Source of the DNA: a virus
UHGV virus genome: UHGV-0370399
Length of the DNA stretch: 64,000 bases
Strand: one strand, 5' to 3'
Position 1 is the stretch's first letter. The number at the start of each line of letters is the position of its first letter. The translations under genes were made by a program, and so were the position numbers. The notes under the pieces are model-generated. The model saw only the letters and a program-made list of their open reading frames with translations. It was not told where the DNA came from and did no database searches. Of this stretch, positions 1 through 48,445 are shown piece after piece.

Positions 1-207
1 CGTAAAAAAGGCTATAAAGTTACTTCAAAGTTACGTAAAAAAGGCTATAAAGTTACTTCAAAGTTACGTAAAAAAGGCTATAAAGTTACGTAAAAAAGGC
101 TATAAAGTTACGTAAATGCTAGTCACTAAAAAGCATGTTATAGGGGCTATAAAGTTACTTCAAAGTTACGTAAAAAAGGCTATAAAGTTACGTAAATGCT
201 AGTCCCC
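1..207. repeat. Tandem direct repeats, 22-bp unit CGTAAAAAAGGCTATAAAGTTA (about 6 copies, some with an 11-bp CTTCAAAGTTA insertion); array starts at the window edge and may extend upstream
   Basis: Direct reading of bases 1-207; the unit contains the palindrome TTACGTAA at copy junctions. Confidence 0.9.
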
Positions 208-262
208 TTAACAAATTCTTAACAATCCCTTAACATCTTCTTAACAAATTCTTAACAATCCC
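205..262. repeat. CTTAACA heptamer repeats (5 copies; two copies of a 25-bp unit TTAACAAATTCTTAACAATCCC), reverse complement of the TGTTAAG iterons downstream
   Basis: Direct reading; orientation of the motif flips near 265 (CTTAACA before, TTGTTAG after). Confidence 0.8.
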
Positions 263-526
263 TACATAGTTATGCTTGTTAGCAACTTGTTAGTCCCTTG
301 TTAAATCTCTGTTAATACCATGTAAAAGCTTTGTAAGAGTCTTTGACATAGCCTTAAAAGCTCCTGTAAAGCCTTATAAATAGGTGTCTGTATAGTTGGG
401 GTGTAATTACTAGGAAGAGGTTTAAAAGAGCTTACAAGGAGCTATAGAGAGCTTTTAAAAGGGCTATTTAAAGAATCATTAAGAAAGAGAGGGAACGATA
501 AGAAAGAGATAGTGACCATGTTAATA

Positions 527-795
527 GCTTGTTAAAAAGATTAAACACTTGTTAGAAACTTGTTAATTATCTTAACAAGATAACTCTTAAAAATTAACTT
601 GTTAGCTCTTGTTAGTCATCTGTTAAGATTCTGTAAAGCCCATGTATCAACTGTTAAGAAACTGTTAAGCCCTTGTTAGTTCTGTTAAGAATCTGTTAAG
701 ACCTATGAAGAGTTGTTAAGAAGATGTGAGAGCTGTTAAGAGATTGTTAAGGATATTTTAAAATTTTGCAAAGTACTTGTAAGGGAGCTGTTAAG
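527..795. repeat. Dense iteron-like array of about 17 copies of (C/T)TGTTA(A/G) with 3-10 bp spacing; sporadic further copies at 950-1020, 1140-1165 and 1281-1295
   Basis: Direct reading; no ORF of 60 aa or more anywhere in 1-1400. Confidence 0.8.
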
Positions 796-1401
796 GGCTA
801 CCAAGCAGATATACATCTTCTACAGATATTTTTCAGTTCCTTCAAAGACCCTAAAAAATGACTTGATAGTCCTATTTTATAAAAATTTTAAGATTCTGAA
901 TAATTACCTATACAGTCTTTTAAAAATACAGGTAATAACAGGCTTATAAGATACCTTGTTAGTACCGTGTTAGACCTTGTGAGATAAGGTCTGTGAAGAT
1001 ATTCCTGTTAAGTTTGTTAAAACAGTTTATATAGAGGCTTAGTAGTACCTAGTGAACACCTATAGAGAGTGTCATAGCTTACCTAGAAATTAAGAGGTGT
1101 ATAGGAGCTTCTAAGAGGGTGTAGAGGGATGGTTAAGGTGATTGTATAGGTTGTTAAGAAGGCTTGTTAGAAGAGTGTTTAGATGGCTATTTAGAAGGGC
1201 TATACAGAGGGCTATTGAGACCACTAGATAGTTACTAAGATACTATATAGTACTATATAACTATATAGAGAGTAAGATTAAGAAGGTTGTTAAGAAGGAT
1301 AGATATTTTATTCACATATGATGGTGACCCAGAGGTTGGGACAACCGATAAAATTTTATAAAAATTAAAAAGCCCCCAATTAAGGAGGCTCTTAAGATAT
1401 T

Positions 1402-2025
1402 TTAAATCAGTGTTTCCAGAACTGTTTTCAATGATGACTTAGTTGTCTGGTAAAAATGAGTGAACCCATTATTGTTATCGAATATCTGCATCATGATATC
1501 ATCTCCCTTGATTGGGTACACTCGGATATCATAGTGAAACCCATTAAAGACAGCAGAACCATTACAGAACACACTAAAGTCAGCCACTGAGATATACTCT
1601 TCATGTCCTGTGATTTTTATACAAACACCTTTACTCGGTCTCTTAGGGTTGATATCTTCCATCACAGACATACTCTGTCCACCAAGAGATACCATAGTGA
1701 CCACTTTACGGTTCTTCTGTTTAAAGTACATCTTAACTTTCTGCAAAGTGTCTTCATAGAATGGATAAGACCTTTCTACAAAGATTCCTTCAAGTGGCTC
1801 TTTACCATTTTCAACTTCTCGGTTATGCCGTACTGCAAAGATAATTTGTTCGAACCAGTCAAGATTTTCTTCGGAGAGTGCTTCCCGAACATCCTTCCAG
1901 TCAAGTACTAAGTAGTTACCTTCAACTTCTTTTAAGTTATCTTTTTCCATATCTATCACACCATTATCGTAAAACTTGATATTCTGGTACTGCGAATTTA
2001 TTACTATTGTTCTTGATGAGGTCAT
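1402..2025 (-). CDS. hypothetical protein (true start may be an internal Met, since it overlaps the upstream gene by 62 bp)
   Basis: 207-aa ORF in a co-oriented gene array; no motif recognised. Confidence 0.5.
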   Translation of the reverse strand: MTSSRTIVINSQYQNIKFYDNGVIDMEKDNLKEVEGNYLVLDWKDVREALSEENLDWFEQIIFAVRHNREVENGKEPLEGIFVERSYPFYEDTLQKVKMYFKQKNRKVVTMVSLGGQSMSVMEDINPKRPSKGVCIKITGHEEYISVADFSVFCNGSAVFNGFHYDIRVYPIKGDDIMMQIFDNNNGFTHFYQTTKSSLKTVLETLI

Positions 2026-2428
2026 CCTCTGAAACTAAAAATGTAATACCACATAAGTGTCTGTAACGACTATCATACTCGAATATCTTAAACAGATATT
2101 TACCATCATGATAAACCTGTTGCACTTCACCTTCTGCAACAATCTCGCCTGTAATAAAATTTTTTAGTTTATACACATTACCAACTTTAGGTACTGTTTT
2201 CATCTCAGGCTCTTTTAGTGCTACACTTATTTTTGCATCACCGAGTAAATGAGAACTCTCAAAAGCTACGTGTTTCATATAAGCTTCTGAGCATTCCCAG
2301 ATAAAACAATGTACAAGAACCTTAGCAGCATGTCTTGAACAGTTTAACTTATCACAAATTTCTGTGTACATCTCATCTTTAGTCGAGTTGTCAAGCATTA
2401 CTCTTTGCACTATCTCTTTTACTTTCAT
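1964..2428 (-). CDS. hypothetical protein
   Basis: 154-aa ORF in minus-strand array. Confidence 0.5.
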   Translation of the reverse strand: MKVKEIVQRVMLDNSTKDEMYTEICDKLNCSRHAAKVLVHCFIWECSEAYMKHVAFESSHLLGDAKISVALKEPEMKTVPKVGNVYKLKNFITGEIVAEGEVQQVYHDGKYLFKIFEYDSRYRHLCGITFLVSEDDLIKNNSNKFAVPEYQVLR

Positions 2429-2846
2429 AAGCTCTCCGAATAACCCTATTAAACATCTCTAAAGTCAGCTTTCCAGATTCTAAATGTGGCATAACAAGCT
2501 TTAAAGCTTTTTCAACATCATGCACAACATCTATTATACCTTCTGCATAGGCTTCTACAAGGATATCTTTTACATTTTGTGATTTACCTTTTTGTGGTAT
2601 CACTAGACGCATATCAAACTCATTTGCTTGAGGATGGTTCTTACCACGCCAGAAACCGTCCTTATCAAAGCTTATAAAGTTATCCTCATTAAAATTAATA
2701 CCACAAACCTTAAACTTATCTAAAACTATGCAGTTGAGAGGGTAATCATCACTTGCATCATTCATTCCAAGAAACTTAACAGTAGCTATATACCTCTGTG
2801 TCTTTGAATCTACAATGTCAAGTTCTTTACCTATGTACTCTTTCAT
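2391..2846 (-). CDS. hypothetical protein
   Basis: 151-aa ORF in minus-strand array. Confidence 0.5.
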   Translation of the reverse strand: MKEYIGKELDIVDSKTQRYIATVKFLGMNDASDDYPLNCIVLDKFKVCGINFNEDNFISFDKDGFWRGKNHPQANEFDMRLVIPQKGKSQNVKDILVEAYAEGIIDVVHDVEKALKLVMPHLESGKLTLEMFNRVIRRAYESKRDSAKSNA

Positions 2847-2849
2847 CTC

Positions 2850-3122
2850 TTAAATCCTATCAATTTGAAACTCTTCAGGTAACTCAGCCACCACTTTTAA
2901 ATAGTAAGCATCAGAGATTGTATGCTTTGTCTCATAGCTACCATTCTTAATCCAGTTATAATTTTCTGGTATTCCATCATCATTACAAAAACCTGAGTAC
3001 ATAATTGCTCTGTGGATTATATTTTTATTAGAGTATGCAACATCTACAATATAGTATGTTTTTTCTTTCCAACCACCTTCAGGTTTACAAATACCTGAGA
3101 TACCCTCTAATTCTGGTGTCAT
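2850..3122 (-). CDS. hypothetical protein
   Basis: 90-aa ORF tightly packed with neighbours. Confidence 0.5.
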   Translation of the reverse strand: MTPELEGISGICKPEGGWKEKTYYIVDVAYSNKNIIHRAIMYSGFCNDDGIPENYNWIKNGSYETKHTISDAYYLKVVAELPEEFQIDRI

Positions 3123-3175
3123 TTCGCTACCTTCTAAGTTTCTACAAAGGGGCTATCAAGTAACCCCTCAAGTTA

Positions 3176-3400
3176 CTACTCAGACTTTTCAGTCTTCTTA
3201 TCGGATTTCTTACTAGTCTTCTTCTCAGCTTTCTGTTCAGGCTCCTTCTCAGAAGTTGCCTTAATAACCATATCAAGAAGCTCTGATAAGTCACTCTTCA
3301 GCAAAGTAACAGGCTGCTCGTTGTAGAAGTTTTTGTCAAGATAAACTTTGAACTCTTCTATAGAAGGAAATCCAAAAATTGGTACAGGTGTCTTAATCAT
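3176..3400 (-). CDS. hypothetical protein with Lys/Glu-rich C-terminus
   Basis: 74-aa ORF; C-terminal KKTSKKSDKKTEKSE tail. Confidence 0.45.
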   Translation of the reverse strand: MIKTPVPIFGFPSIEEFKVYLDKNFYNEQPVTLLKSDLSELLDMVIKATSEKEPEQKAEKKTSKKSDKKTEKSE

Positions 3401-3476
3401 TACTTAGTCTCTCCATAGGCATCTTTTAAGATTGCCTTGTTAATCATTTCAGCGATTGCAAAACGAACACATACAG

Positions 3477-4010
3477 CTATAATTGTAGGTTGCATTCTTT
3501 ACTTACCTCTTCAAGTTTAACTTCAGAGTCCTTAAGTCGTTTCTTATGAACTCTGAACCTCATTAGTGAGATGATGATACCAGCTAAAGGAACAACATAC
3601 AAGTACCAGACATCATGCAACTTTGCAGTAATCTGTGTAATGGTCAAGTCTTGAGCTATGTAGCTGATTGCTGATACAGCTAGTAATGTTGCTAAGAAGA
3701 ACACTAGTATCATAACAATATTTAGACAACCTCTGGCATGATATTCATGCTTAATGCACTTATTCTTCTCTTCAACAACCCTGTTGTAGTCATTTGTAAA
3801 GTCTCTGTAGAAAGCTTTCAAGTATTCTTGAGTGTAGCCTTCAAAGCAACCTGTACCGTACCAATAGTCACCACCAAAGTGTGCTATGATACCGGTATCC
3901 CCATTTGGTTTGGTTACTCTAAGAGAAGTATGATGACCAGTCTTCTGGTAATCTATTTTGTATCTTTCTTCGTAAATCATTTCCCAAACCCTCTCAATCG
4001 TTTGTTCCAC
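3477..4010 (-). CDS. membrane protein (soluble N-terminal domain, two C-terminal hydrophobic helices)
   Basis: 177-aa ORF; hydrophobic stretches LNIVMILVFFLATLLAVSAISYI and YLYVVPLAGIIISL. Confidence 0.5.
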   Translation of the reverse strand: MEQTIERVWEMIYEERYKIDYQKTGHHTSLRVTKPNGDTGIIAHFGGDYWYGTGCFEGYTQEYLKAFYRDFTNDYNRVVEEKNKCIKHEYHARGCLNIVMILVFFLATLLAVSAISYIAQDLTITQITAKLHDVWYLYVVPLAGIIISLMRFRVHKKRLKDSEVKLEEVSKECNLQL

Positions 4011-4195
4011 TCAAGGTCAACAAGCCTTTGCAGGACTTTCCCTCTAGGTGTTACACCTTTTAAATCTGCATCGTAGCAACGGTAAAAGTCACCTTCAGCG
4101 TGTTTACCATAGCATTTTCTGATATTCTGGCTCCTACGATACTGCTCTAACAGGGACAGTTTGTAGTAGTCTTCAACTGTAGTTAGTTTTTTCAT
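3977..4195 (-). CDS. hypothetical protein
   Basis: 72-aa ORF in array. Confidence 0.4.
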   Translation of the reverse strand: MKKLTTVEDYYKLSLLEQYRRSQNIRKCYGKHAEGDFYRCYDADLKGVTPRGKVLQRLVDLEWNKRLRGFGK

Positions 4196-4278
4196 TCTTT
4201 TACCATGTCTCTTATCTAGAAACTAAAAAGGGAACTACCTCTCGATAGCTCCCATCATAATCAGTGTTGTATACTCGG

Positions 4279-4860
4279 TCAAGAGTATTTTTTAGGCAGC
4301 AATGCACTGCGCTTGTTACTCTCTTCACTCAATAGTGCAATGAAATCATCACTTTTACCTTTCCACGGGCTGAATGAAGGGATATGTTCGCGGATAGCCT
4401 CAATCACTGTTTTAAGTGCTGTGTTCTTCATCCACCAATCAGAATCTGCTGATGCTACCACGTAGTATCCACCGTCATCAGTTAAAATTGGCTCTGAAAT
4501 ACATGGTGAAATCAAAGTGGTGATGATTGAACCGTTGTTCATGTAGTATGTGCGCTTCATAACCTTTTCAAGAAGCTTGTGAAGGTCACCAAACAGTGTT
4601 ACAAGTTCTTTGTGGTCGATGTCTTTTTCGAGGCTTGCTCGATACTTCAATAGTGCAGCATCAACCTCTCTGTCATTGAATTTGAAGTACTGGACTTCAT
4701 CAACAAGGCAAACACTGATATTGTTCACATTCATAGTCAACTTACAAACTTTTGCAGGAGAGTTGATGCTTGGTTGAAAAAGTGCAATACACCCTTCAAT
4801 ATTTCCAAAATGTTGTACCAGTGTTACTTGTGGAGTAATATTCTGTTGCTCTTCGGACAT
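4279..4860 (-). CDS. hypothetical protein
   Basis: 193-aa ORF; stop/start coupled with next gene. Confidence 0.5.
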   Translation of the reverse strand: MSEEQQNITPQVTLVQHFGNIEGCIALFQPSINSPAKVCKLTMNVNNISVCLVDEVQYFKFNDREVDAALLKYRASLEKDIDHKELVTLFGDLHKLLEKVMKRTYYMNNGSIITTLISPCISEPILTDDGGYYVVASADSDWWMKNTALKTVIEAIREHIPSFSPWKGKSDDFIALLSEESNKRSALLPKKYS

Positions 4861-5204
4861 TACAGTTTCCTCATTAAATACTTTTTAAGTTGTGTGTTAG
4901 GTTTCTCAAAAACTTCTATAGAAGATATCTTGACATATTCACCACGCATACCTGTATGTTTGAATATATAGTACTCTAACATCCCTATGTACTTTGCTGG
5001 TAAGTCATGCTTGACATATACCGTCACAGAATCTTCAAACTCAACAACCTTTGTACCATCTTTGTAGTTAAACTCTTTAGGATGGTTGTAGTTGTCTATA
5101 TCGTACATTAAGAAGAGTCTTTTACGTTGTAAGTCAAGCTTATTTGTTAAAGACTCTTTGATATCTAAGAAGTTTTTGTACACTGTGACATGGAGCTTAC
5201 TCAT
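4860..5204 (-). CDS. hypothetical protein
   Basis: 114-aa ORF. Confidence 0.5.
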   Translation of the reverse strand: MSKLHVTVYKNFLDIKESLTNKLDLQRKRLFLMYDIDNYNHPKEFNYKDGTKVVEFEDSVTVYVKHDLPAKYIGMLEYYIFKHTGMRGEYVKISSIEVFEKPNTQLKKYLMRKL

Positions 5205-5490
5205 CGTTAAACTCTCTGACGAAGAAATAGTTGACTTTGTTATTACCTACCATAAGGTCAAAGCAGGTATTCTCAAAAGGTTTGTTGTAGGCATCATATG
5301 AAGTGTACGTATCAGCTACTTGCTTAGTAGTGAGCTTTTTACTTGATGGATTTAAGAGGCCACCATACAGTTTCTTGATAGCCTCTTCTACAACAGACCA
5401 GATAATTTCGTCAGTAATTTCTTCGTACAGGTCAAGTTCACGCTCTAGTGAGAAGTCACAAATAGGGAAAACAACCTGTACTTTACTCAT
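5197..5490 (-). CDS. hypothetical protein
   Basis: 97-aa ORF. Confidence 0.5.
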   Translation of the reverse strand: MSKVQVVFPICDFSLERELDLYEEITDEIIWSVVEEAIKKLYGGLLNPSSKKLTTKQVADTYTSYDAYNKPFENTCFDLMVGNNKVNYFFVREFNDE

Positions 5491-5879
5491 TAACGAATCA
5501 CCTGTGAGACTTGAATTGCTTCAGTTACTGACAAGTCACCTACTTTCTCTTCTTTGATAAAAGTGAAGGTGAGTTCAACAGGCTCTTGCTCTTCTTGCTC
5601 AACTGGAATGCCATTAAGCTCATCGCGGATTGATTGAGTTGTCCAGTCTTCTCCACCATCTGGATAATGGATGGCGTAACGAGGAAACTCCATATCATAC
5701 CAGCCAAATACAGGACAACCATCTTCATCATCTCGCATTCTGCGAAGGGTGCTACCTGAGCCTGTAAAGCGAAGACTAATATTCCCATTACACTCAAAAA
5801 TCACTGCGTCGGCAAGTCCAGCATCTTCTCGACCATCATGTCCAAAAGTGTCAACTTTTACTTGAATCTCTTTATTCAT
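5490..5879 (-). CDS. hypothetical protein
   Basis: 129-aa ORF. Confidence 0.5.
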   Translation of the reverse strand: MNKEIQVKVDTFGHDGREDAGLADAVIFECNGNISLRFTGSGSTLRRMRDDEDGCPVFGWYDMEFPRYAIHYPDGGEDWTTQSIRDELNGIPVEQEEQEPVELTFTFIKEEKVGDLSVTEAIQVSQVIR

Positions 5880-6270
5880 AAAAACCTCTCTCTGCTTGTT
5901 CGATTTTTGCTCTTAAAACTTCACAACGTTCTATGTGATATCTGGCCTCATGCTCATGTGTTGCCAAAGTCCTTTCAAGAACTGTTTTATAGTAACTCGC
6001 AAGCTGCTCTCTTGTCAAGGGGTGTTCTGAAATAATATCAAGGCCACTTTCCCCTAGAGTATTAAACTGCCCGTGTTCATTTACATGGTAAGTCTCAAAC
6101 TTGAACAGGCCGTTGTTAGCAGATTCAATAGGTGAGAGTTCAGCCAACTCAACAGTGAACATTGTGTGTACCCTATCACCAATTGTAACAATGTTACTCC
6201 CAATGATTCTCACCATTGAGCCATTGCGAGTGTACTTAAAAGTCCCAACATCATCAGCCCAAAGTTTCAT
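5872..6270 (-). CDS. hypothetical protein
   Basis: 132-aa ORF. Confidence 0.5.
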   Translation of the reverse strand: MKLWADDVGTFKYTRNGSMVRIIGSNIVTIGDRVHTMFTVELAELSPIESANNGLFKFETYHVNEHGQFNTLGESGLDIISEHPLTREQLASYYKTVLERTLATHEHEARYHIERCEVLRAKIEQAERGFYE

Positions 6271-6283
6271 AGTTTTCTCCTTA

Positions 6284-6311
6284 GAAAATAAAAAAGGCTC
6301 CCGAAGGAGCC
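6284..6311 (-). terminator. Rho-independent terminator (GGCTCC-CGAA-GGAGCC hairpin followed by a U-run on the minus strand)
   Basis: Hairpin plus A-run on plus strand (AAAATAAAAAAGGCTCCCGAAGGAGCC) immediately downstream of the minus-strand endolysin gene. Confidence 0.65.
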
Positions 6312-6321
6312 TATGAAGATA

Positions 6322-6786
6322 TTACTTTGGATATACACTGTCAAGATAAATGTCAGCTTCCATTCTACGTCTGTTTTTCAGGCCGTTTGAGGTGACCTTC
6401 TTGCCTTTGACTGTAACCTTGTTCCACCATTGCATAGCTTCTGCACAACCGACCTTATTACCATCGTTGTGGCGCTTGATAAATGTAGAGTCCTGCATAG
6501 CTGTGATGCCAATGTTGTATGTTTCACTTACAAGTGCATCAAACTCGTTCTGAGAAGTTGGAACCTTGATGGCTTTGTTCACTGCTGCAACGAATTTTTC
6601 AACATCTGCAAGAAGATACTGTTCAGCTTGTTCAGCGGTAATCTTCATACCCATCTTAACAGGCTTCCCACCAATACGGATTGTCCCATACCCAATTGTG
6701 GGGATTCCAGCAGAATCTTCGTAAGCCTCCAGCTTAAGACCTTCAAAGAACTTAATAGCTTCTAAACCTTTCTGTGAGAGTTGCAT
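6322..6786 (-). CDS. endolysin, phage lysozyme (glycoside hydrolase family 24, lambda R / T4 e type)
   Basis: N-terminal motif GLKLEAYEDSAGIPTIGYGT typical of GH24 muramidases; 154 aa. Confidence 0.85.
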   Translation of the reverse strand: MQLSQKGLEAIKFFEGLKLEAYEDSAGIPTIGYGTIRIGGKPVKMGMKITAEQAEQYLLADVEKFVAAVNKAIKVPTSQNEFDALVSETYNIGITAMQDSTFIKRHNDGNKVGCAEAMQWWNKVTVKGKKVTSNGLKNRRRMEADIYLDSVYPK

Positions 6787-7919
6787 TATGCCCCTCCTAC
6801 TGGGTTAACTGTAACTGTTGCTGCATTAGACGTTACAGAGCCACCTGCACCAGTAACTACACAGGTGTAGCTTCCTGCATCAGCAGCGGTTGCACCTTCT
6901 TTGGTGTAAGTTGCACCAGTTGCATCGAGGATGTCTTCCTCACCTTTCTTCCACTGGTAACCTGTTGCACCTGTTGCCACAACATTCAGCGTTAAGGTCT
7001 CACCTTCAGTGATTTCTTGATTGGTTGGCTGTTGAGTGATTACCGGAAGTGCATTCACAGTTACTACAGCAGCATTAGATTCCACTGCACCACCTGCACC
7101 TGTTACAACGCAAGTGTATGAACCAGCATCTGCTGGCAGCGCACCGGACTTGCTATAGGTAGCATCTGTAGCTGAAGTGATGTCAGAGCCATCTTTCTTC
7201 CACTGATAACCTGTTGCACCTGTTGCAGCCACTACCAAGTTGATGTCTCCACCCTCATTGATAGTCTGACCAGAAGGTTGCTGTGTAATCACAGGCAGTG
7301 CGTTGACAGTAACTGTTGCCGCATCTGAGGTAACACTTGTCCCAGCCTCTCCAGACACAACACAAGTATAGGAACCAGCATCAGAAGGTACTACAGACTG
7401 TTTTGTGTAGGTTGCAGATGTGGCACTAGTGATATCCTCACCACCCTTTTTCCATTGATATCCAGTGGCATTAGTTGCAATAACACTTAGGGTAAGTGTG
7501 CCACCTTCATTTACTGTTTGGTTGGTTGGTTGCTGAGTGATTGATGGTGGCTTGATAGCATCCTTCAGCTTAGCATTCAGCATTGAGAATGGTTTAACTC
7601 TTGCCAGCCATTCACAATAAACTGTATCAACGTCTTTACCATTGATAATTGCATATTGTAAGTCCATGAAGAAGTCAGAAGTTCTCATTTGAGCACCAAC
7701 GCTGTAAAGCAACTCATCACTAAATGGGACTTTGTAGTCTGGTTTGTAGTCAAACTTCTCAACTTCTGCAATATCAGCTTCAGGCCAATATGAACTATAA
7801 GTAAGTGGTAAAATAGCCTCTTGATATGTTCTAAAATCATATCTCTTACCAGCCTTTACATTTGCAACGAAGCCCTTCACAAACTCTTTGAAGTCTGGGT
7901 AAGTCTTTGCTTTAATCAT
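6786..7919 (-). CDS. Ig-like domain protein: N-terminal about 120-aa domain plus three tandem Ig-like repeats of about 85 aa
   Basis: Three repeats each carrying QQP(T/S)xQT(V/I)NEGG...ATGYQWKK...DAGSYTCVV(S/T)G...VTVN (I-set-like G-x-Y-x-C signature); N-domain is paralogous to the adjacent 123-aa protein. Confidence 0.7.
   Translation of the reverse strand: MIKAKTYPDFKEFVKGFVANVKAGKRYDFRTYQEAILPLTYSSYWPEADIAEVEKFDYKPDYKVPFSDELLYSVGAQMRTSDFFMDLQYAIINGKDVDTVYCEWLARVKPFSMLNAKLKDAIKPPSITQQPTNQTVNEGGTLTLSVIATNATGYQWKKGGEDITSATSATYTKQSVVPSDAGSYTCVVSGEAGTSVTSDAATVTVNALPVITQQPSGQTINEGGDINLVVAATGATGYQWKKDGSDITSATDATYSKSGALPADAGSYTCVVTGAGGAVESNAAVVTVNALPVITQQPTNQEITEGETLTLNVVATGATGYQWKKGEEDILDATGATYTKEGATAADAGSYTCVVTGAGGSVTSNAATVTVNPVGGA
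6789..7541 (-). repeat. Three tandem about 255-bp coding repeats (Ig-like domains) inside the 6786-7919 gene
   Basis: Repeated DNA blocks around 6930-7060, 7190-7320 and 7441-7550 read directly. Confidence 0.75.
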
Positions 7920-8287
7920 TTCTTTTTAGCCTCTAAATGTGCGTTTAGTCTAAAATAACCTTTGTGATGCGGAGATACATCACCAACAACAATACCTTTA
8001 GCCTTATAACCTTTACCAATTACATACTGGATATCCATAAGGAATCTTCCAAGTCCAACGATATGGAACATTGGATATAATAGATTCTCAGAGTCTGGAA
8101 TATTGATTTCAGGTTTGTAGGTGCGTTGTTCGCTTGTTGGTGTAATATCTTCTTCAGGCCATTTACTGAGTCTCCATGTCAAAGGTGTTGGGATAACATC
8201 ATTAAGGTTGTACCTTTCACCATTTTGCACGGAATTGATATAGGATTGTAGGAAGCAATAAAAGTCTTTTGCACTCTTAGCTTTCAT
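7916..8287 (-). CDS. hypothetical protein, paralog of the N-terminal domain of the Ig-like protein
   Basis: Shared pattern M-x-KAK...DF...G-x-RY...WPE-DI...YKP...LLY...F-MD-QY-I..G between the two proteins. Confidence 0.55.
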   Translation of the reverse strand: MKAKSAKDFYCFLQSYINSVQNGERYNLNDVIPTPLTWRLSKWPEEDITPTSEQRTYKPEINIPDSENLLYPMFHIVGLGRFLMDIQYVIGKGYKAKGIVVGDVSPHHKGYFRLNAHLEAKKK

Positions 8288-8310
8288 TAAATATCCTTAT
8301 AAATAGTTAA

Positions 8311-8326
8311 AGGGGCATCAGCCCCT
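8311..8326 (-). terminator. Possible hairpin terminator (AGGGGC-ATCA-GCCCCT) between minus-strand genes
   Basis: Perfect 6-bp stem; weak U-run, so low confidence. Confidence 0.3.
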
Positions 8327-8334
8327 ATTCACAC

Positions 8335-8925
8335 TTAAGCTTTGGTCTTAAGTAGGTTCTTAAGTTTTTTAAGATTCATACTCTCATCAAACTTAAAACC
8401 AAATCCATTGACATAATCAATGAACTCGGATTTCTTACTGAGTGACAATGCGTAACTCATATCAAAGTTCTTACTTGTTTCTGCGTCTGGACTAGAGTTC
8501 ACATCAAATGAAATTTCTGTAGGCTCTTGCTTACTTTTTCTCATATTATCAACCAACAAACATGTATAGTTTGCTGGATAGAAGTTTACACTACCATCAA
8601 CGTAGCTGTACTTATTATTATGGATAAGGTTTGAAAATACCTTAAGGAATGTTTCTGAGTCGTGGCAAACAAGTTTGAATTGGCTGCTCTCTCCAAGCGC
8701 AACTAATGAGTACGGACTTTCACTATCAAAGTCATAATTTGGATTCGATGCCGTTACTGTTACACGCATCAAGTTATTAGCAATAGTCTTCTGTTTAAAA
8801 GAATTTTGAACATAGTGAAGACCTCTATCACACTGATTGACTAGCTCTTTAAGTAGGTCATTTGCATATGGCGAATTAATTGATACAGAGCCATCACTAT
8901 TGTAATTAAAACTTACTGTTAACAT
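8335..8925 (-). CDS. hypothetical protein
   Basis: 196-aa ORF. Confidence 0.5.
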   Translation of the reverse strand: MLTVSFNYNSDGSVSINSPYANDLLKELVNQCDRGLHYVQNSFKQKTIANNLMRVTVTASNPNYDFDSESPYSLVALGESSQFKLVCHDSETFLKVFSNLIHNNKYSYVDGSVNFYPANYTCLLVDNMRKSKQEPTEISFDVNSSPDAETSKNFDMSYALSLSKKSEFIDYVNGFGFKFDESMNLKKLKNLLKTKA

Positions 8926-9152
8926 TTTTCAGTTCTCCTGCGATTTATAATTTTGCTGCAATAGAGAAACGAAGTAAACTCACTGGAAGAAACCACTAAG
9001 TGTTGTTCACTAGATTGAGCCATTGCCCTGAAATACATTCCAGTCAAAGCATCATAGTGACTATTCTTTCCAATTGAGGTTATATAGCCATGACTCTTTG
9101 CAGTTTGATATAAATCTATAATATCTGCGATTTCTAATTGGGAACTACACAT
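8919..9152 (-). CDS. hypothetical protein
   Basis: 77-aa ORF. Confidence 0.35.
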   Translation of the reverse strand: MCSSQLEIADIIDLYQTAKSHGYITSIGKNSHYDALTGMYFRAMAQSSEQHLVVSSSEFTSFLYCSKIINRRRTEKC

Positions 9153-9316
9153 AGATAATCCTCTTGTCTTCTGTAATTTTGAAAGAACAGGTACAGACCA
9201 ATTTCAGAGGATGAATAGTAGATTAATTCTACCCTTTTTGATTCCTTACAGTGATTGGTATTCTTACCTTTCTTCGGTTTATTTGATTTTCTCATTAAGT
9301 CTCCTTTGTAGAACAA
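9134..9316 (-). CDS. hypothetical small basic protein
   Basis: 60-aa ORF, first gene of the minus-strand block. Confidence 0.3.
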   Translation of the reverse strand: MFYKGDLMRKSNKPKKGKNTNHCKESKRVELIYYSSSEIGLYLFFQNYRRQEDYLCVVPN

Positions 9317-9340
9317 GGCAGACCTACAGCTTTAAGTAAG

Positions 9341-9369
9341 ATGGTACAGTAATCCATACAACAAGTCAA
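9341..9369 (-). promoter_or_regulatory. Candidate sigma70-like promoter for the minus-strand block (-35 TTGACT, 17-bp spacer, -10 TACCAT on minus strand)
   Basis: Plus-strand AGTCAA at 9364-9369 and ATGGTA at 9341-9346 with 17-bp spacing. Confidence 0.35.
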
Positions 9370-9394
9370 GAACTATTGCAAGTTAAAAAAGTTG

Positions 9395-15075: not shown

Positions 15076-16677
15076 ATGGACTTAAATGCTGTTAAGCAGA
15101 AGCGAGTGGAAGATGTTAGGAAAGTCCTAGCTGGAGAGTTGGGGCTTTCTGATGAAGTAAAAGAAATTATTAAATCATTCGGTAAAGACCCCTCTAAATT
15201 CCTTCCAACTCAAATTCTGACTTTATTAAGATACACACCAGACCAAGTTCGCCTTATCTTTAAATTGATGACTGATAAGAACTATGTAGCCCCTCAGCCG
15301 GGTTCTCAAGAGGTCTTTTTAAATACTAATGCTGACTTGGTTCTCTATGGTGGTGCTGCTGGTGCTGGTAAGACTGCCGCATTGTTAATGGACTCTTTAA
15401 GATTTATTGAAGACCCTAACTATAATGCTGTATATTTCCGTCGAAATACAACACAGTTACAAGGTGGTTTATGGCCTGCTGCAAAGAAACTATTTGGTAA
15501 GTTTGGTGGGATTCCTCACGAGCAGAAAATGACTATCACATTCCCTTCTGGGGCAACTATCAAGTTTACCTACCTAGAACTTGAAAAGCACGCTGAAGGT
15601 CATCAGGGTATTGAATACTCAGCTATTTACTTTGACGAAGGTACACACTTCTCTGCTTCACAGATTTCATACCTACAAACCCGTCTACGTTCTGGTGCTG
15701 AAGGCGATTCATACATGAAGATTTCCATGAACCCAGACAGAGACCACTTTATTTACGATTGGGTAGAGCCATTCTTAGATGAAGAAGGCTACCCAGACCC
15801 TGAAAAATGTGGTCGTATTCGTTGGTATGTAATGAACGATGGCGTGATGGTTTCTGATTGGGAGAGAGACAAGATTCTTGAAATGTTCCCCCTTGAGATT
15901 CCTCAAACATACACCTTTATTTCTGGTACGATTGATGATAACCCAATCCTTGACTTCTTAGAGCCTAAGTACCGTGGTAAGCTGGAAAACAACACTCCTT
16001 TAAACGTTGCAAGACTTCGTTTCGGTAACTGGAAGGCTCGTGCAGAAGGTTCAAACTATTGGCAAAGACAATGGTGTGAAATTGTTGATTCACTCCCAGA
16101 AGATGTATTTGATGTTAGAGCATGGGACTTAGCAGCAACTTTACCATCTGAGATTAACCCTAATCCAGACTGGACAGCAGGTGTTAAGATGGGTAAATCT
16201 AAAAAAGACGGTTGCTATTATATCATTGATGTAGTAAGATTTAGAGATAGACCCTCTGGAGTCGAAACACAAATTAATTTGACTGCTGAAAGTGACGGTA
16301 AGCGAACTGGTATTTTTATCCCTCAAGACCCAGGCGCTGCTGGTAAATCCTACGCAACATCCCTCATCAGGAAACTTGCCGAGAAAGGTTATCGAGCAAG
16401 AGCCAAACCAACAAATAAAGATAAAGTTACCCGCTTTGCGGGATTTTCTGCTGCTTCTGAAGCTGGACTTGTAAAAGTCTTGAGAGGTAGTTGGAATGAA
16501 GCTTACTTTCAAGAGCTTGAAGGCTTTTGTGGTGATGGCAAAACTAAAGATGACCAAGTGGATGCTACCAGTGATGCTTTCAACAGTCTTAACGAAGTTA
16601 AATTATTCAAGCCACCATCAATGGGCGCTCACACAGACTTAGTGAGGGGAAACCCATATGAGGGGCTTAGACGTTGA
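15076..16677 (+). CDS. terminase large subunit (ATPase plus nuclease)
   Basis: Walker A LVLYGGAAGAGKT, Walker B-like IYFDEGTHF, C-terminal acidic nuclease-type residues; ATG at 15076 preceded by GGAGG (ORF track used an upstream TTG at 15061). Confidence 0.85.
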   Translation: MDLNAVKQKRVEDVRKVLAGELGLSDEVKEIIKSFGKDPSKFLPTQILTLLRYTPDQVRLIFKLMTDKNYVAPQPGSQEVFLNTNADLVLYGGAAGAGKTAALLMDSLRFIEDPNYNAVYFRRNTTQLQGGLWPAAKKLFGKFGGIPHEQKMTITFPSGATIKFTYLELEKHAEGHQGIEYSAIYFDEGTHFSASQISYLQTRLRSGAEGDSYMKISMNPDRDHFIYDWVEPFLDEEGYPDPEKCGRIRWYVMNDGVMVSDWERDKILEMFPLEIPQTYTFISGTIDDNPILDFLEPKYRGKLENNTPLNVARLRFGNWKARAEGSNYWQRQWCEIVDSLPEDVFDVRAWDLAATLPSEINPNPDWTAGVKMGKSKKDGCYYIIDVVRFRDRPSGVETQINLTAESDGKRTGIFIPQDPGAAGKSYATSLIRKLAEKGYRARAKPTNKDKVTRFAGFSAASEAGLVKVLRGSWNEAYFQELEGFCGDGKTKDDQVDATSDAFNSLNEVKLFKPPSMGAHTDLVRGNPYEGLRR

Positions 16678-40359: not shown

Positions 40360-40875
40360 CTATTTAACCTCAAAAACTGGCTCAAGAACCAATATAAAGT
40401 CTACACAGTCATCTTCTTCATCCAGAATACCATCAAAGTTCTTAGGAACGAAGTCGAAGAGGCTCATCACAAAGCAGTCAGAAGTGACCTTGATAGTTCC
40501 TCCCATGTTCTCTACAGTTAACACTGTACGACTTTCTTTTACCTCCCTCAGAAGATTACCCACAAAGTCATCTAAGAAGTACTTCATCAGTGACTTAAAA
40601 CCTTTAGGATAATCTGTACCAGAGTATGTTTCAATCTGAGGCACAAGCTTAACATTTATACTAGTCTTTGTTAAGAACGTGTTAGAGAACATACTATCAG
40701 GTAACTTACAAACACTCTTTCCAGTACCTTCATGTTCAATCTCAACAAAACCAGCTTCGTCGCCACATGTAACTATTTTAAAAGATGCTTCATTCTCATA
40801 CTGTGAAGCCATAAACTTTTTAAGCATCTCTTTAAGGAAATCTGCATGAGCATCTTGTAAGTAGATATCAATCAT
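40360..40875 (-). CDS. hypothetical protein
   Basis: 171-aa ORF. Confidence 0.5.
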   Translation of the reverse strand: MIDIYLQDAHADFLKEMLKKFMASQYENEASFKIVTCGDEAGFVEIEHEGTGKSVCKLPDSMFSNTFLTKTSINVKLVPQIETYSGTDYPKGFKSLMKYFLDDFVGNLLREVKESRTVLTVENMGGTIKVTSDCFVMSLFDFVPKNFDGILDEEDDCVDFILVLEPVFEVK

Positions 40876-41249: not shown

Positions 41250-41579
41250 TTAGTCTGCCAACCTTAAATTGAAATTAACACCAAATTTTTCACATACTTC
41301 CAACATATACTCAAGGGAAACATTACCAGTGAGGTGGATTATGTTGGATACACGAGCCTGAGAGATACCACAAATTTTAGCAACTTGCTCTTGAGAAAGA
41401 CCTCTGGATTTAATCTCTCTCTTAAAACGATGTGCAACGAAGTCTCTCATTTCGTCTACATCCATTGGACAAATATAACTCTCCATTTCAGCCTCTCTAT
41501 CAGCCTCCCAATCATCTTGTGGGGCATAAGGGTCAAAAACCTCATTCATCTTTCTTCTTCCGTTTGCGTGAAGTGTCAA
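41250..41579 (-). CDS. helix-turn-helix DNA-binding protein (possible transcription regulator)
   Basis: C-terminal HTH-like segment LSQEQVAKICGISQARVSNI; acidic N-terminus. Confidence 0.5.
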   Translation of the reverse strand: MTLHANGRRKMNEVFDPYAPQDDWEADREAEMESYICPMDVDEMRDFVAHRFKREIKSRGLSQEQVAKICGISQARVSNIIHLTGNVSLEYMLEVCEKFGVNFNLRLAD

Positions 41580-48278: not shown

Positions 48279-48445
48279 TTGCGAAGTGGGTTTTTACTTA
48301 AAAGGTTACTTAACAGTTTAACTATACAGATACTTTAAAACTCTTAAAAGATTATTTAATAGCTTTTAAAAAGCTTTAAAGTATAACGTATAGAATACGT
48401 TAAGATAAAAGATTAAAACTTAATAGTTACTTAAAAGAGGCTTAC

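Follow-up and report, generated by a model that had tools for sequence, protein, structure and literature searches.

What is the role of a long non-coding region, packed with short repeats, that lies at the very start of a phage sequence? The virus genome UHGV-0370399 raises this question. In the 64,000-nucleotide stretch of it analyzed here (the whole of which we call the window), an initial annotation made from the letters alone had noticed 1.3 kb of tandem repeats and inverted iteron arrays at the left end. It had suggested a replication origin, a packaging or terminal-repeat region, or clustered binding sites for a phage DNA-binding protein. Among these options, the terminal-repeat and packaging reading is now strongly supported by homology to a mapped short DTR (the sequence found at both virion ends in relatives), and the origin reading has gained no positive support. 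Taken together, we think it likely that the region is the genome terminus, and its repeats may serve as a platform for packaging.

In the following sections, we describe the genome and the setting of the region, the layout of the repeats, the terminal repeat and its conservation, and then a possible packaging mechanism, which is weighed against other explanations.

Phage identity and genomic setting

Judged by sequence similarity, the source genome is a Felixounavirus, i.e. a Felix O1-like myovirus. Positions 1-1400 are matched at 80-95% by more than 200 Felixounavirus records, and positions 1400-12000 at 90-96%. The gene for the large terminase subunit (TerL; 15061-16677, plus strand), whose product matches Terminase_6N and Terminase_6C, has at least 95% DNA identity to 214 phage records, and those listed are Felixounavirus. 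The TerL clade of Felix O1 has been assigned to DTR packaging (PMC4837284), and TerL would be expected to make the cuts at the DTR boundaries.

The non-coding region is flanked by two gene arms, both of which are transcribed toward it and end at terminators on either side. On the right, a terminator scan placed an intrinsic terminator on the minus strand at 1368-1393, which closes the minus-strand arm ending at 1402; the same terminator is annotated in phage ASO1A. Neither Pfam nor PHROG assigns a function to the neighboring genes. As the initial annotation had stated, the region is free of ORFs: only two of at least 30 aa (31 and 37 aa) occur in 1-1400, and none is credible in 1-1320. The GC content is 29-35%, compared with about 39% across the window. 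Note that the window start truncates the left tandem array, and that relatives extend the non-coding DNA 250-460 bases further to the left. Two other readings of this DNA were rejected: an Rfam scan of 1-1500 for a non-coding RNA, run at a permissive cutoff, yielded nothing beyond sub-threshold noise, and sigma-70-like sites are not enriched as a promoter cluster would be.

Organization of the repeats

The whole region is composed of units of about 11 bp with a GTTA core. The left flank (1-201, plus strand) is a tandem array built on a AAAGTTAC-GTAAAAAAGGCTAT unit, as defined by TRF and by motif positions. TRF reported a period of 33 over 1-191, a period of 22 over 60-116 (100% match) and a period of 11 over 16-67; AAAGTTAC occurs nine times in the array, which is interrupted by a unique 35-bp segment at 111-145. 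The 22-bp array initially described at 1-207 is thus present, but it is a compound 11/22/33-bp array rather than a pure 22-bp one. The number of units varies from 3 in ASO1A to 15 in VSe11, and is at least 9 in the window phage.

Five exact CTTAACA iterons (TGTTAAG on the minus strand) follow at 207-257, spaced 11 bp apart (207, 218, 229, 240 and 251). The first begins 5 nt inside the left DTR boundary, and relatives carry two to five such copies at DTR positions 7, 18, 29 and onward. The orientation then flips, with a center near 265-270, into six plus-strand TGT[TA]A[AG] iterons at 277-337 with an exact 11-bp spacing (277, 288, 299, 310, 321 and 332). The center of the DTR (338-518) is poor in iterons and conserved, with a mean column conservation of 0.89, and it retains a 10-12-bp periodicity (lag-11 autocorrelation z = 4.0). 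It is followed at 519-795 by a dense array in which 18 iterons are plus-oriented and one (571-577) is inverted; the spacings are 9-11, 20, 33 or 39 bp, and the array stops 7 nt short of the right DTR boundary. In the right flank (816-1320, plus strand), scattered iterons are found at 957, 968, 1006, 1015, 1152, 1165 and 1288, together with further units of about 11-12 bp (GGCTAT..., TATAG...), and the plus strand is G-rich. TGTTAAG-type heptamers number more than 30 in the DTR, where they share one face of the helix, and more than 40 in the region as a whole. This layout bears out most of the initial reading, in which CTTAACA repeats flipped orientation near 265 and were followed by a dense array of about 17 iterons and by scattered copies to about 1300.

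Both the enrichment and the phasing of the iterons are far beyond chance. The exact heptamer TGTTAAG occurs 44 times in the 64-kb window, compared with a mean of 16.8 in shuffled sequences (none of 100 shuffles reached 44), and 18 of the 44 matches lie within the first 1.3 kb. No other part of the stretch contains four or more iteron matches per 150 bp. The spacings follow a period of about 10.7 bp, with a mean remainder of 0.77 compared with 2.40 +/- 0.29 in the null model (0 of 5000 as extreme), and the lag-11 autocorrelation (z = 10.7) exceeds that of all 40 coding control segments. A search for a secondary site found one mini-cluster of three copies at 40649-40685, which lies inside an ORF and probably arose by chance.

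Probable terminal repeat and its boundaries

Comparison with relatives makes it very probable that positions 1-1400 are the concatemer-junction or genome-terminus region, in which the 601-bp segment 202-802 corresponds to the short DTR of the genus, with non-coding flanks at 1-201 and 803-1400. That a DTR lies at the genome ends is essentially already known in the relatives. In particular, a 608-bp DTR was demonstrated in UAB_Phi87 by Bal31 digestion and run-off sequencing, and a 613-bp DTR in Ro111lw by PhageTerm; Kolesnikviruses have also been reported to have short DTRs. In the Felix O1 genome paper, short terminal repeats were merely suspected.

Segment 202-802 is matched by 232 records at a coverage of at least 80%. 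The 581-bp DTR of Pr103Blw, which was mapped by PhageTerm and is annotated at both ends of the record, aligns with it end to end. Exact terminal duplications are present in CRP22 (579 bp), SeKF_63 (613 bp) and NBSal004 (694 bp), with identical boundary sequences, and the annotated DTR feature of UAB_69 lies within 2 nt of the same boundaries. UAB_69, from the same laboratory, was used for the end positions in place of UAB_Phi87, whose examined record is an older, unrearranged version. In all, the placement of the DTR rests on four both-end records, one DTR annotation and three papers.

In the relatives, the left cut falls between ACGTAAATGCTA and GCCCCCTTAACA, and the right cut between TGTTAAGGGCTACC and AAGCAGATATACA. 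The equivalent positions in the window are 201|202 and 802|803. The window sequences at these positions, ACGTAAATGCTA followed by G(T/C)CCCCTTAACA and TGTTAAGGGCTACC followed by AAGCAGATATACA, are identical to those of the four both-end records save for one T/C difference. Just outside each boundary lies a conserved box on the plus strand: ACGTAAATGCTA at 190-201, which is kept in 22 relatives, and AAGCAGATATACA at 803-815, which is found in 28 IMG/VR contigs; both junctions are identical in the four both-end records. The ends of the tandem array and of the dense array coincide with these two boundaries, the array edges lying within about 5-7 nt of the cut sites.

A search of the 64-kb window for a second copy of the repeat found none; the one match, 33 nt at 48281-48313, is terminator-like. 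Since the window carries one repeat copy, we infer the termini of this phage by homology, and it presumably cuts at the same places as its relatives. In the virion, the left flank (1-201) would then sit just inside the right-end copy of the DTR. Assigning 202-802 as the terminal repeat provides the correct linear map for the phage, by which the full virion genome should exceed a collapsed assembly by about 600 bp. It also accounts for the fact that assemblies break or open in this region.

Conservation across genera

The initial annotation had made conservation in relatives a point to be checked, and the repeats are clearly conserved. The same layout is present in 22 relatives from three genera. 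Suspvirus, Mooglevirus and an Erwinia Kolesnikvirus all show the TGTTAAG iteron at 11-bp phasing together with the flip in orientation. Erwinia phage Roscha1 shares the TGTTAAGA consensus, the start motif and the right box, although the surrounding DNA is barely alignable. In this record, the right box AAGCAGATATACA lies about 448 nt from the start. Since the record lacks a second repeat copy, only the conserved box indicates where its right boundary presumably lies; the last iteron is about 27 nt from that presumed boundary.

Conservation is 0.897 in iteron cores and 0.838 in spacers, a modest gap among sequences that share kinship. We also considered inverted CCCTTAACA motifs at both boundaries as determinants of opposite-strand nicks. 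They fit Felixounavirus and fail in Roscha1, so that this idea is speculation.

A heptamer in strict helical register, a flip at the left end and cuts flush with the array edges are thus conserved in four genera. A literature search for the motif itself returned primer noise only, and the fine structure of the repeats appears to be undescribed in searchable papers. The helically phased 7-bp repeats are real and conserved; their role we infer from the considerations below.

A possible packaging mechanism

By analogy with the CCTAAAG arrays of T7, the arrays may be the platform on which the terminase recognizes the concatemer junction, with the iterons as putative protein-binding sites and the terminase as the candidate binder. 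We propose, at somewhat less than even odds, that they work as a landing pad for the packaging initiation complex and that the terminase cuts at the boundary boxes. The complex, of which an oligomeric small terminase would be a component, would assemble on the phased arrays, wrap the DNA and position TerL, which would cut between ACGTAAATGCTA and G on the left and between ACC and AAGCAGATATACA on the right. The single repeat copy of the junction would then be duplicated through fill-in synthesis, as in T7-type packaging. The repeat structure offers a testable handle on how short-DTR phages recognize and duplicate their ends.

As the small terminase subunit, we nominate a 123-aa DUF5681 protein (9545-9916, plus strand; Pfam PF18932, E = 2e-14), a candidate drawn solely from gene neighborhood: in unrelated phage contigs (L048, L049 and L051) the gene for a DUF5681 homologue extends into the start of TerL. 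In the window, by contrast, the DUF5681 gene lies 5 kb upstream of TerL. As a candidate small terminase, it is also a candidate binder of the iterons. Its motif FKKGQSGNPSGRPKGSxN is invariant or nearly so. PHROGs, a PDB sequence search and Foldseek returned nothing, including no significant match to a solved small terminase; two AlphaFold models gave no informative match (the structural model has a modest pLDDT of 70), and all homologues in a large protein database are named 'hypothetical' or 'DUF5681'. No iteron arrays were seen beside the DUF5681-TerL pairs of the unrelated contigs, an uninformative result for a span of only 8 kb. A 66-aa ORF upstream of TerL was rejected as the small terminase; it has no Pfam match, and its PHROG match is to a family of unknown function.

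In a bolder and rather doubtful version of this model, the phased TGTTAAG arrays would be an Ounavirinae-wide recognition code for DUF5681 as an unrecognized family of small terminases, in which contacts of an arm in the groove and a wrapping oligomer set both cuts. The invariant N-terminal GNPxGRPKG arm, which is AT-hook-like, would enter the minor groove at the TTAA of successive iterons 11 bp apart, and the oligomer would wrap about 100-300 bp at each end of the repeat, thereby placing the two cuts about 600 bp from each other. Such a model, if true, would give a function to DUF5681 and explain at the sequence level how short-DTR myoviruses define both boundaries of the repeat. More generally, the nomination offers a missing small terminase for the Felix O1-like phages, a group with wide use in typing, biocontrol and therapy.

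Alternative explanations

Pac sites, with headful packaging and permuted ends, and cos sites also typically lie in non-coding DNA that is rich in repeats. We give this reading almost no weight, however, because the ends of the relatives are exact and non-permuted with identical boundaries, and PhageTerm classes them as DTR phages. Moreover, Bal31 degraded two defined end fragments of UAB_Phi87, and its restriction pattern is unaffected by heating, and therefore there is no cos site. A different objection to a functional platform is that the repeats may be a largely neutral minisatellite, generated by slippage and unequal recombination in terminally duplicated DNA that is not transcribed; the 11-bp units would then lack any sequence-specific function, and only the two boundary boxes would matter. 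The variable copy number (3 to 15 units in the left flank and two to five in the CTTAACA block) is as expected from such a process, as are the DTR lengths of relatives, which range from 567 to 694 bp and differ mostly by whole 11-bp units. Yet neutral slippage normally homogenizes whole units, instead of keeping a core and varying the spacer, and here the cores are better conserved than the spacers; the heptamer, the 11-bp register and the flip also persist in Suspvirus, Mooglevirus and the Erwinia Kolesnikvirus despite diverged surroundings. We regard this explanation as improbable, though it is the most credible of those considered in this section.

If the arrays were, or were also, a replication origin, the phased repeats would be bound by an initiator from the phage or the host, which would melt the AT-rich DNA, and the low GC content and the non-coding, iteron-dense sequence with helically phased repeats would suit this role. 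On the other hand, 7-bp cores in more than 40 copies over 1.3 kb are unlike the typical 17-22-bp iterons of origins, and no gene for an initiator or for replication lies next to them: the polymerase and the primase-helicase are encoded at 45-52 kb. A single DnaA box with one mismatch was found, which is no enrichment. The GC skew is uninformative as a marker of origin or terminus, since it tracks the direction of the genes and its sign also changes at several further sites. Finally, an origin would not require the array edges to match the DTR cut sites within about 5-7 nt, and we hold the origin reading to be quite unlikely. Slightly less likely again is that the arrays bind a phage protein other than the terminase, such as an end-protecting or nucleoid-like protein or the HTH protein encoded at 41250-41579, for regulation, end protection or control of injection. 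Phased iterons do imply cooperative protein binding, and the window does encode an HTH_3 protein, which the initial annotation had put forward as the binder. This protein turned out to be a generic Cro/C1-type HTH without any link to the motif, and the DUF5681 protein is the better candidate. Promoters to be regulated are not enriched (11 found versus 8.1 +/- 2.7 expected), the adjacent gene arms both point inward and terminate, and the sole other iteron-like group is the chance-like mini-cluster within an ORF.

Comparison with known systems

The closest counterpart is the short DTR of other Felixounavirus phages (UAB_Phi87, Pr103Blw, Ro111lw and UAB_69), with which the region shares 85-94% identity, the boundary boxes, the position between convergent gene arms and the iteron architecture. 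It differs in having five left-end CTTAACA copies, by way of a 22-bp duplication, instead of the three of most relatives, in the boundary sequence GTCCCC instead of GCCCCC, and in a longer tandem array in the left flank.

In lambda and SPP1, the R-elements of cosB and the pacL and pacR boxes are short phased sites by the terminase cut, which are thought to wrap the oligomeric small subunit; such sites contain two to four repeats and define cos or headful cuts. The window would resemble them in having multiple short phased putative binding sites near a terminase cut, whereas its repeats number more than 40 and its two cuts would be separated by about 600 bp. Iteron origins, such as the lambda ori and plasmid oriV, share with the region an AT-rich, non-coding sequence in which direct repeats of a motif are helically phased. 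They differ from the region in repeat unit, copy number and extent, and the window lacks an adjacent initiator gene and a cluster of DnaA boxes.

For T7, we re-examined the concatemer junction and found 13 CCTAAAG heptamers, located in both flanks and inside the repeat. We take these arrays to be the SRL and SRR repeats of Dunn and Studier (1983). Their motif is unrelated to TGTTAAG, and they have a spacing of about 13 bp in a single orientation, unlike the 11-bp spacing and orientation flip found here. The T7 terminal repeat is 160 bp, whereas the repeat here is four times longer and holds most of the copies. Early promoters lie beside the T7 array, whereas both neighboring arms here are transcribed inward, and the terminases are not close relatives, the TerL of the window being of the T4-type Terminase_6N/6C. 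The similarity is thus an analogy of layout only: in both short-DTR phages, a 7-bp motif in more than 12 copies extends over the left flank, the repeat and the right flank of a non-coding junction.

Repeat architecture of the terminal region

Region 1-1400 was examined by direct reading of the first 2.4 kb, Tandem Repeats Finder, ORF listing and motif scans. It opens with a compound tandem array (1-201), for which Tandem Repeats Finder reports periods of 11, 22 and 33 bp; the repeated unit is CGTAAAAAAGGCTATAAAGTTA, with or without CTTCAAAGTTA, and the array is broken by a unique 35-bp stretch (111-145) and truncated by the window start. Five exact copies of CTTAACA follow at 207, 218, 229, 240 and 251, spaced by exactly 11 bp, and after a flip in orientation six copies of TGT[TA]A[AG] occupy 277-332 at the same exact spacing. 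Beyond an iteron-poor stretch (338-518) lies a dense array (519-795) of 18 plus-oriented TGTTAAG-type heptamers (iterons) and one inverted copy (571), and scattered copies continue up to 1288.

Every element that the initial annotation described at the window start is therefore present, including the CTTAACA block with its flip, the dense direct array (put there at about 17 iterons) and the scattered copies to about 1300. One description needs adjustment: the "22-bp tandem array" exists and ends at a terminal-repeat boundary, but its periods are compound. The ORF listing contains only two of at least 30 aa within 1-1400.

At 1000-1300, the right flank is purine-rich on the plus strand with a strong G-over-C skew (0.5-0.6), unlike the rest of the region. 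The terminator-like hairpin that ends the minus-strand gene arm (1366-1398) recurs inverted at 48281-48313, 47 kb away, with 91% identity over 33 nt, and is the sole part of 1-1400 that is repeated elsewhere in the window.

Identification of a direct-terminal-repeat equivalent

Sequence comparison identifies the window as a Felixounavirus, a Felix O1-like myovirus: it matches over 200 phage records, with 80-95% identity in 1-1400 and 90-96% in 1400-12000, and its gene for the large terminase subunit (TerL, 15061-16677) shares at least 95% identity with 214 records. In annotated relatives, the homologous region is a gap on which two gene arms converge: to its left lie small plus-strand genes, to its right minus-strand genes, and an intrinsic terminator marks either edge (the right-hand one at 1368-1393, minus strand, in the window). 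Leftward of the point that corresponds to window base 1, relatives have a further 250-460 bp of non-coding sequence.

In relatives, the sequence homologous to this region is the physical genome end. The Pr103Blw record, whose direct terminal repeat (DTR) was obtained with PhageTerm (PMC8303462), annotates a 581-bp "short direct terminal repeat" at both ends, which aligns to window 202-802. Exact duplications at both ends occur in three records from other laboratories, CRP22 (579 bp), SeKF_63 (613 bp) and NBSal004 (694 bp), and all four share identical boundaries, ...ACGTAAATGCTA|GCCCCCTTAACA... and ...TGTTAAGGGCTACC|AAGCAGATATACA...; the DTR feature of UAB_69 is 2 nt off on each side. Experimental evidence exists for UAB_Phi87: Bal31 digestion and run-off sequencing demonstrated its ends and a repeat of 608 bp, and cos ends were excluded (PMC4837284). 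A 613-bp repeat is reported for Ro111lw (PMC6454146) and short DTRs for Erwinia Kolesnikviruses (PMC11984208), and in the original Felix O1 paper short terminal repeats were merely inferred, from genome size.

Both boundaries are found in the window, at 201|202 and 802|803, so that the DTR-equivalent measures 601 bp; it is present in one copy, as expected of a partial or collapsed genome. The first boundary is the end of the "22-bp array" and the second the end of the dense iteron array, and the repeat blocks therefore correspond, on sequence grounds, to the left flank, terminal repeat and right flank of a concatemer junction. Two copies of the cut-proximal sequence AAAGTTACGTAAATGCTAGTC are present at a distance of 80 bp (104-124 and 184-204), and only the second copy precedes iterons and matches the boundary mapped in relatives. 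Its sequence, boundaries, context and type of terminase place the region in the Felixounavirus DTR family, whose remaining defining feature, duplication at both ends of the virion DNA, is predicted for this phage. Among the possibilities raised initially, the terminal-repeat or packaging reading was the right one. Because this identity is already known for the genus and annotated in several GenBank records, its novelty is low.

Conservation and phasing of the iterons

Twenty-two DTR-equivalents were compared, namely that of the window, those of GenBank relatives and those of IMG/VR contigs identified by their right-boundary box. All 22 share one plan, which bears out the conservation on which the initial annotation had made its reading depend: first come two to five copies in minus orientation, from DTR position 7 on (7, 18, 29 and so forth), next four to six in plus orientation at 11-bp intervals, then a central stretch of about 150-190 bp, and finally roughly 10-15 plus-oriented copies, in most cases with one inverted. 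Suspvirus (L036 and L041) and Mooglevirus (L022) are among the 22. Conservation is 0.897 in iteron cores versus 0.838 in spacers (Mann-Whitney p = 5e-9, which overstates independence because the sequences are related). The length of the DTR varies between 567 and 694 bp; of 17 distinct values, 15 leave a remainder of 6-9 on division by 11, so the arrays gain and lose whole units. The left-flank array (window 1-201; 6030-6085 and 5960-6231 in the relatives' records L001 and L002) is a variable-number repeat of AAGT[TA][AG]C units. ASO1A has 3 of them and VSe11 15; the window, whose start cuts the array, has at least 9.

The strongest evidence comes from Erwinia phage Roscha1 (Kolesnikvirus), whose DNA can be aligned to the window over about 130 bases only. 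Its record begins CCACTTTTACATTTCGTTAACAACTTTTTAACA and contains 23 TGT[TA]A[AG]-type matches over both strands with the same consensus as the window, TGTTAAGA, a AAGCAGATATACA box about 448 nt in, and a different 11-bp-phased left-flank repeat, CTTCTAAG, in about 12 copies (L046 1231-1800; L045 1-873). The motif, its register and the boundary box have therefore outlasted the surrounding sequence.

Within the 64-kb window, 18 of the 44 exact TGTTAAG matches fall in the first 1.3 kb, a total of 44 was never reached in the shuffled window, and no 150-bp window outside the terminal region holds at least four iteron matches. The iteron spacings fit the helical period: against 10.7 bp, the mean remainder is 0.77, versus 2.40 +/- 0.29 for random gaps (0/5000). 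The lag-11 autocorrelation of the whole 1.3 kb (z = 10.7) exceeds that of 40/40 coding control segments and extends through the iteron-poor centre and right flank. Elsewhere in the window there is a single mini-cluster of three iteron-like motifs, an inverted one and two direct ones 11 bp apart, at 40649-40685 in ORF 40360-40875 (minus strand); it is probably due to chance.

Alternative explanations

An origin of replication, also proposed initially and conceivable as a second role of the region, finds no positive support: the iterons do not have the size or number expected of an origin, no gene for an initiator lies next to them, there is a single DnaA box with one mismatch, and GC skew merely tracks transcription. 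Copy-number variation is what a neutral minisatellite would show, but core, phase and orientation are kept across genera, which speaks against it. Against a regulator array, for example for the HTH protein at 41250-41579 that had been suggested as the iteron binder, stand the lack of enriched promoters in the region on which it could act and of any connection between that protein and the motif. A headful pac site and a cos site are both contradicted by the exact ends in relatives. A non-coding RNA was also considered and rejected; Rfam gave no match, and both gene arms end at terminators before reaching the region.

Proposed packaging model and a candidate small terminase

In relatives it is established that terminase cuts the region at two fixed sites separated by about 600 bp. 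The phased heptamers would be putative protein-binding sites on one helix face, and their arrays could form a platform for a packaging initiation complex that brings TerL to both boundary boxes. Fill-in synthesis would then duplicate the repeat, present once at the junction, as has been proposed for T7-type phages. In Felixounavirus, CCCTTAACA faces inward at both boundaries, 3 and 5 nt from the cuts, and such a pair would direct nicks to opposite strands; this detail is speculative because Roscha1 has no iteron near its presumed right boundary.

Since no small terminase is annotated in Felixounavirus, a candidate iteron binder was sought. The 66-aa ORF directly upstream of TerL (14854-15054, plus strand) has no Pfam match and, among PHROGs, matches only phrog_4397, of unknown function; it looks helical and could be a packaging accessory protein. 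The 123-aa DUF5681 protein (9545-9916, plus strand) is encoded by the first gene of the rightward block leading to TerL, 5 kb upstream of it. In unrelated metagenomic phage contigs (L048, L049 and L051), DUF5681 genes overlap the TerL start, the classical small-terminase position. The genome of phage STGO-35-1, re-oriented so as to start at TerL, has DUF5681 as the final gene in its list (PMC8954984). The almost invariant N-terminal motif of the family, FKKGQSGNPSGRPKGSxN, within which GNPxGRPKG is invariant, is in our reading similar to an AT-hook and could make contact with the TTAA core. The predicted fold, of modest confidence, is a disordered arm followed by a helical hairpin, and comparison with PDB gave no informative match. 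DUF5681 may be an unrecognised small-terminase family, and as a candidate iteron binder it is a lead, not a finding. Between the DUF5681 and Ro60-like/vWA genes and TerL lies a cluster of 15 tRNA genes (11580-14631, plus strand), within which an HNH endonuclease ORF (150 aa, 13855-14307) is inserted.

In the papers searched, we found no description of a conserved, helically phased iteron code in or around the repeat, nor of DUF5681 as a small-terminase candidate; both are modest, testable additions.

Comparison with T7

Among characterised systems, the one nearest to the region in layout is the T7 concatemer junction, whose sequence we retrieved and re-scanned for heptamers. The heptamer CCTAAAG occurs there 13 times, always in the same orientation and spaced by about 13 bp, in both flanks and within the 160-bp repeat. 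T7 and the window differ in motif, spacing, orientation pattern, repeat length and lineage of the terminase, and the likeness is therefore one of analogy rather than membership.
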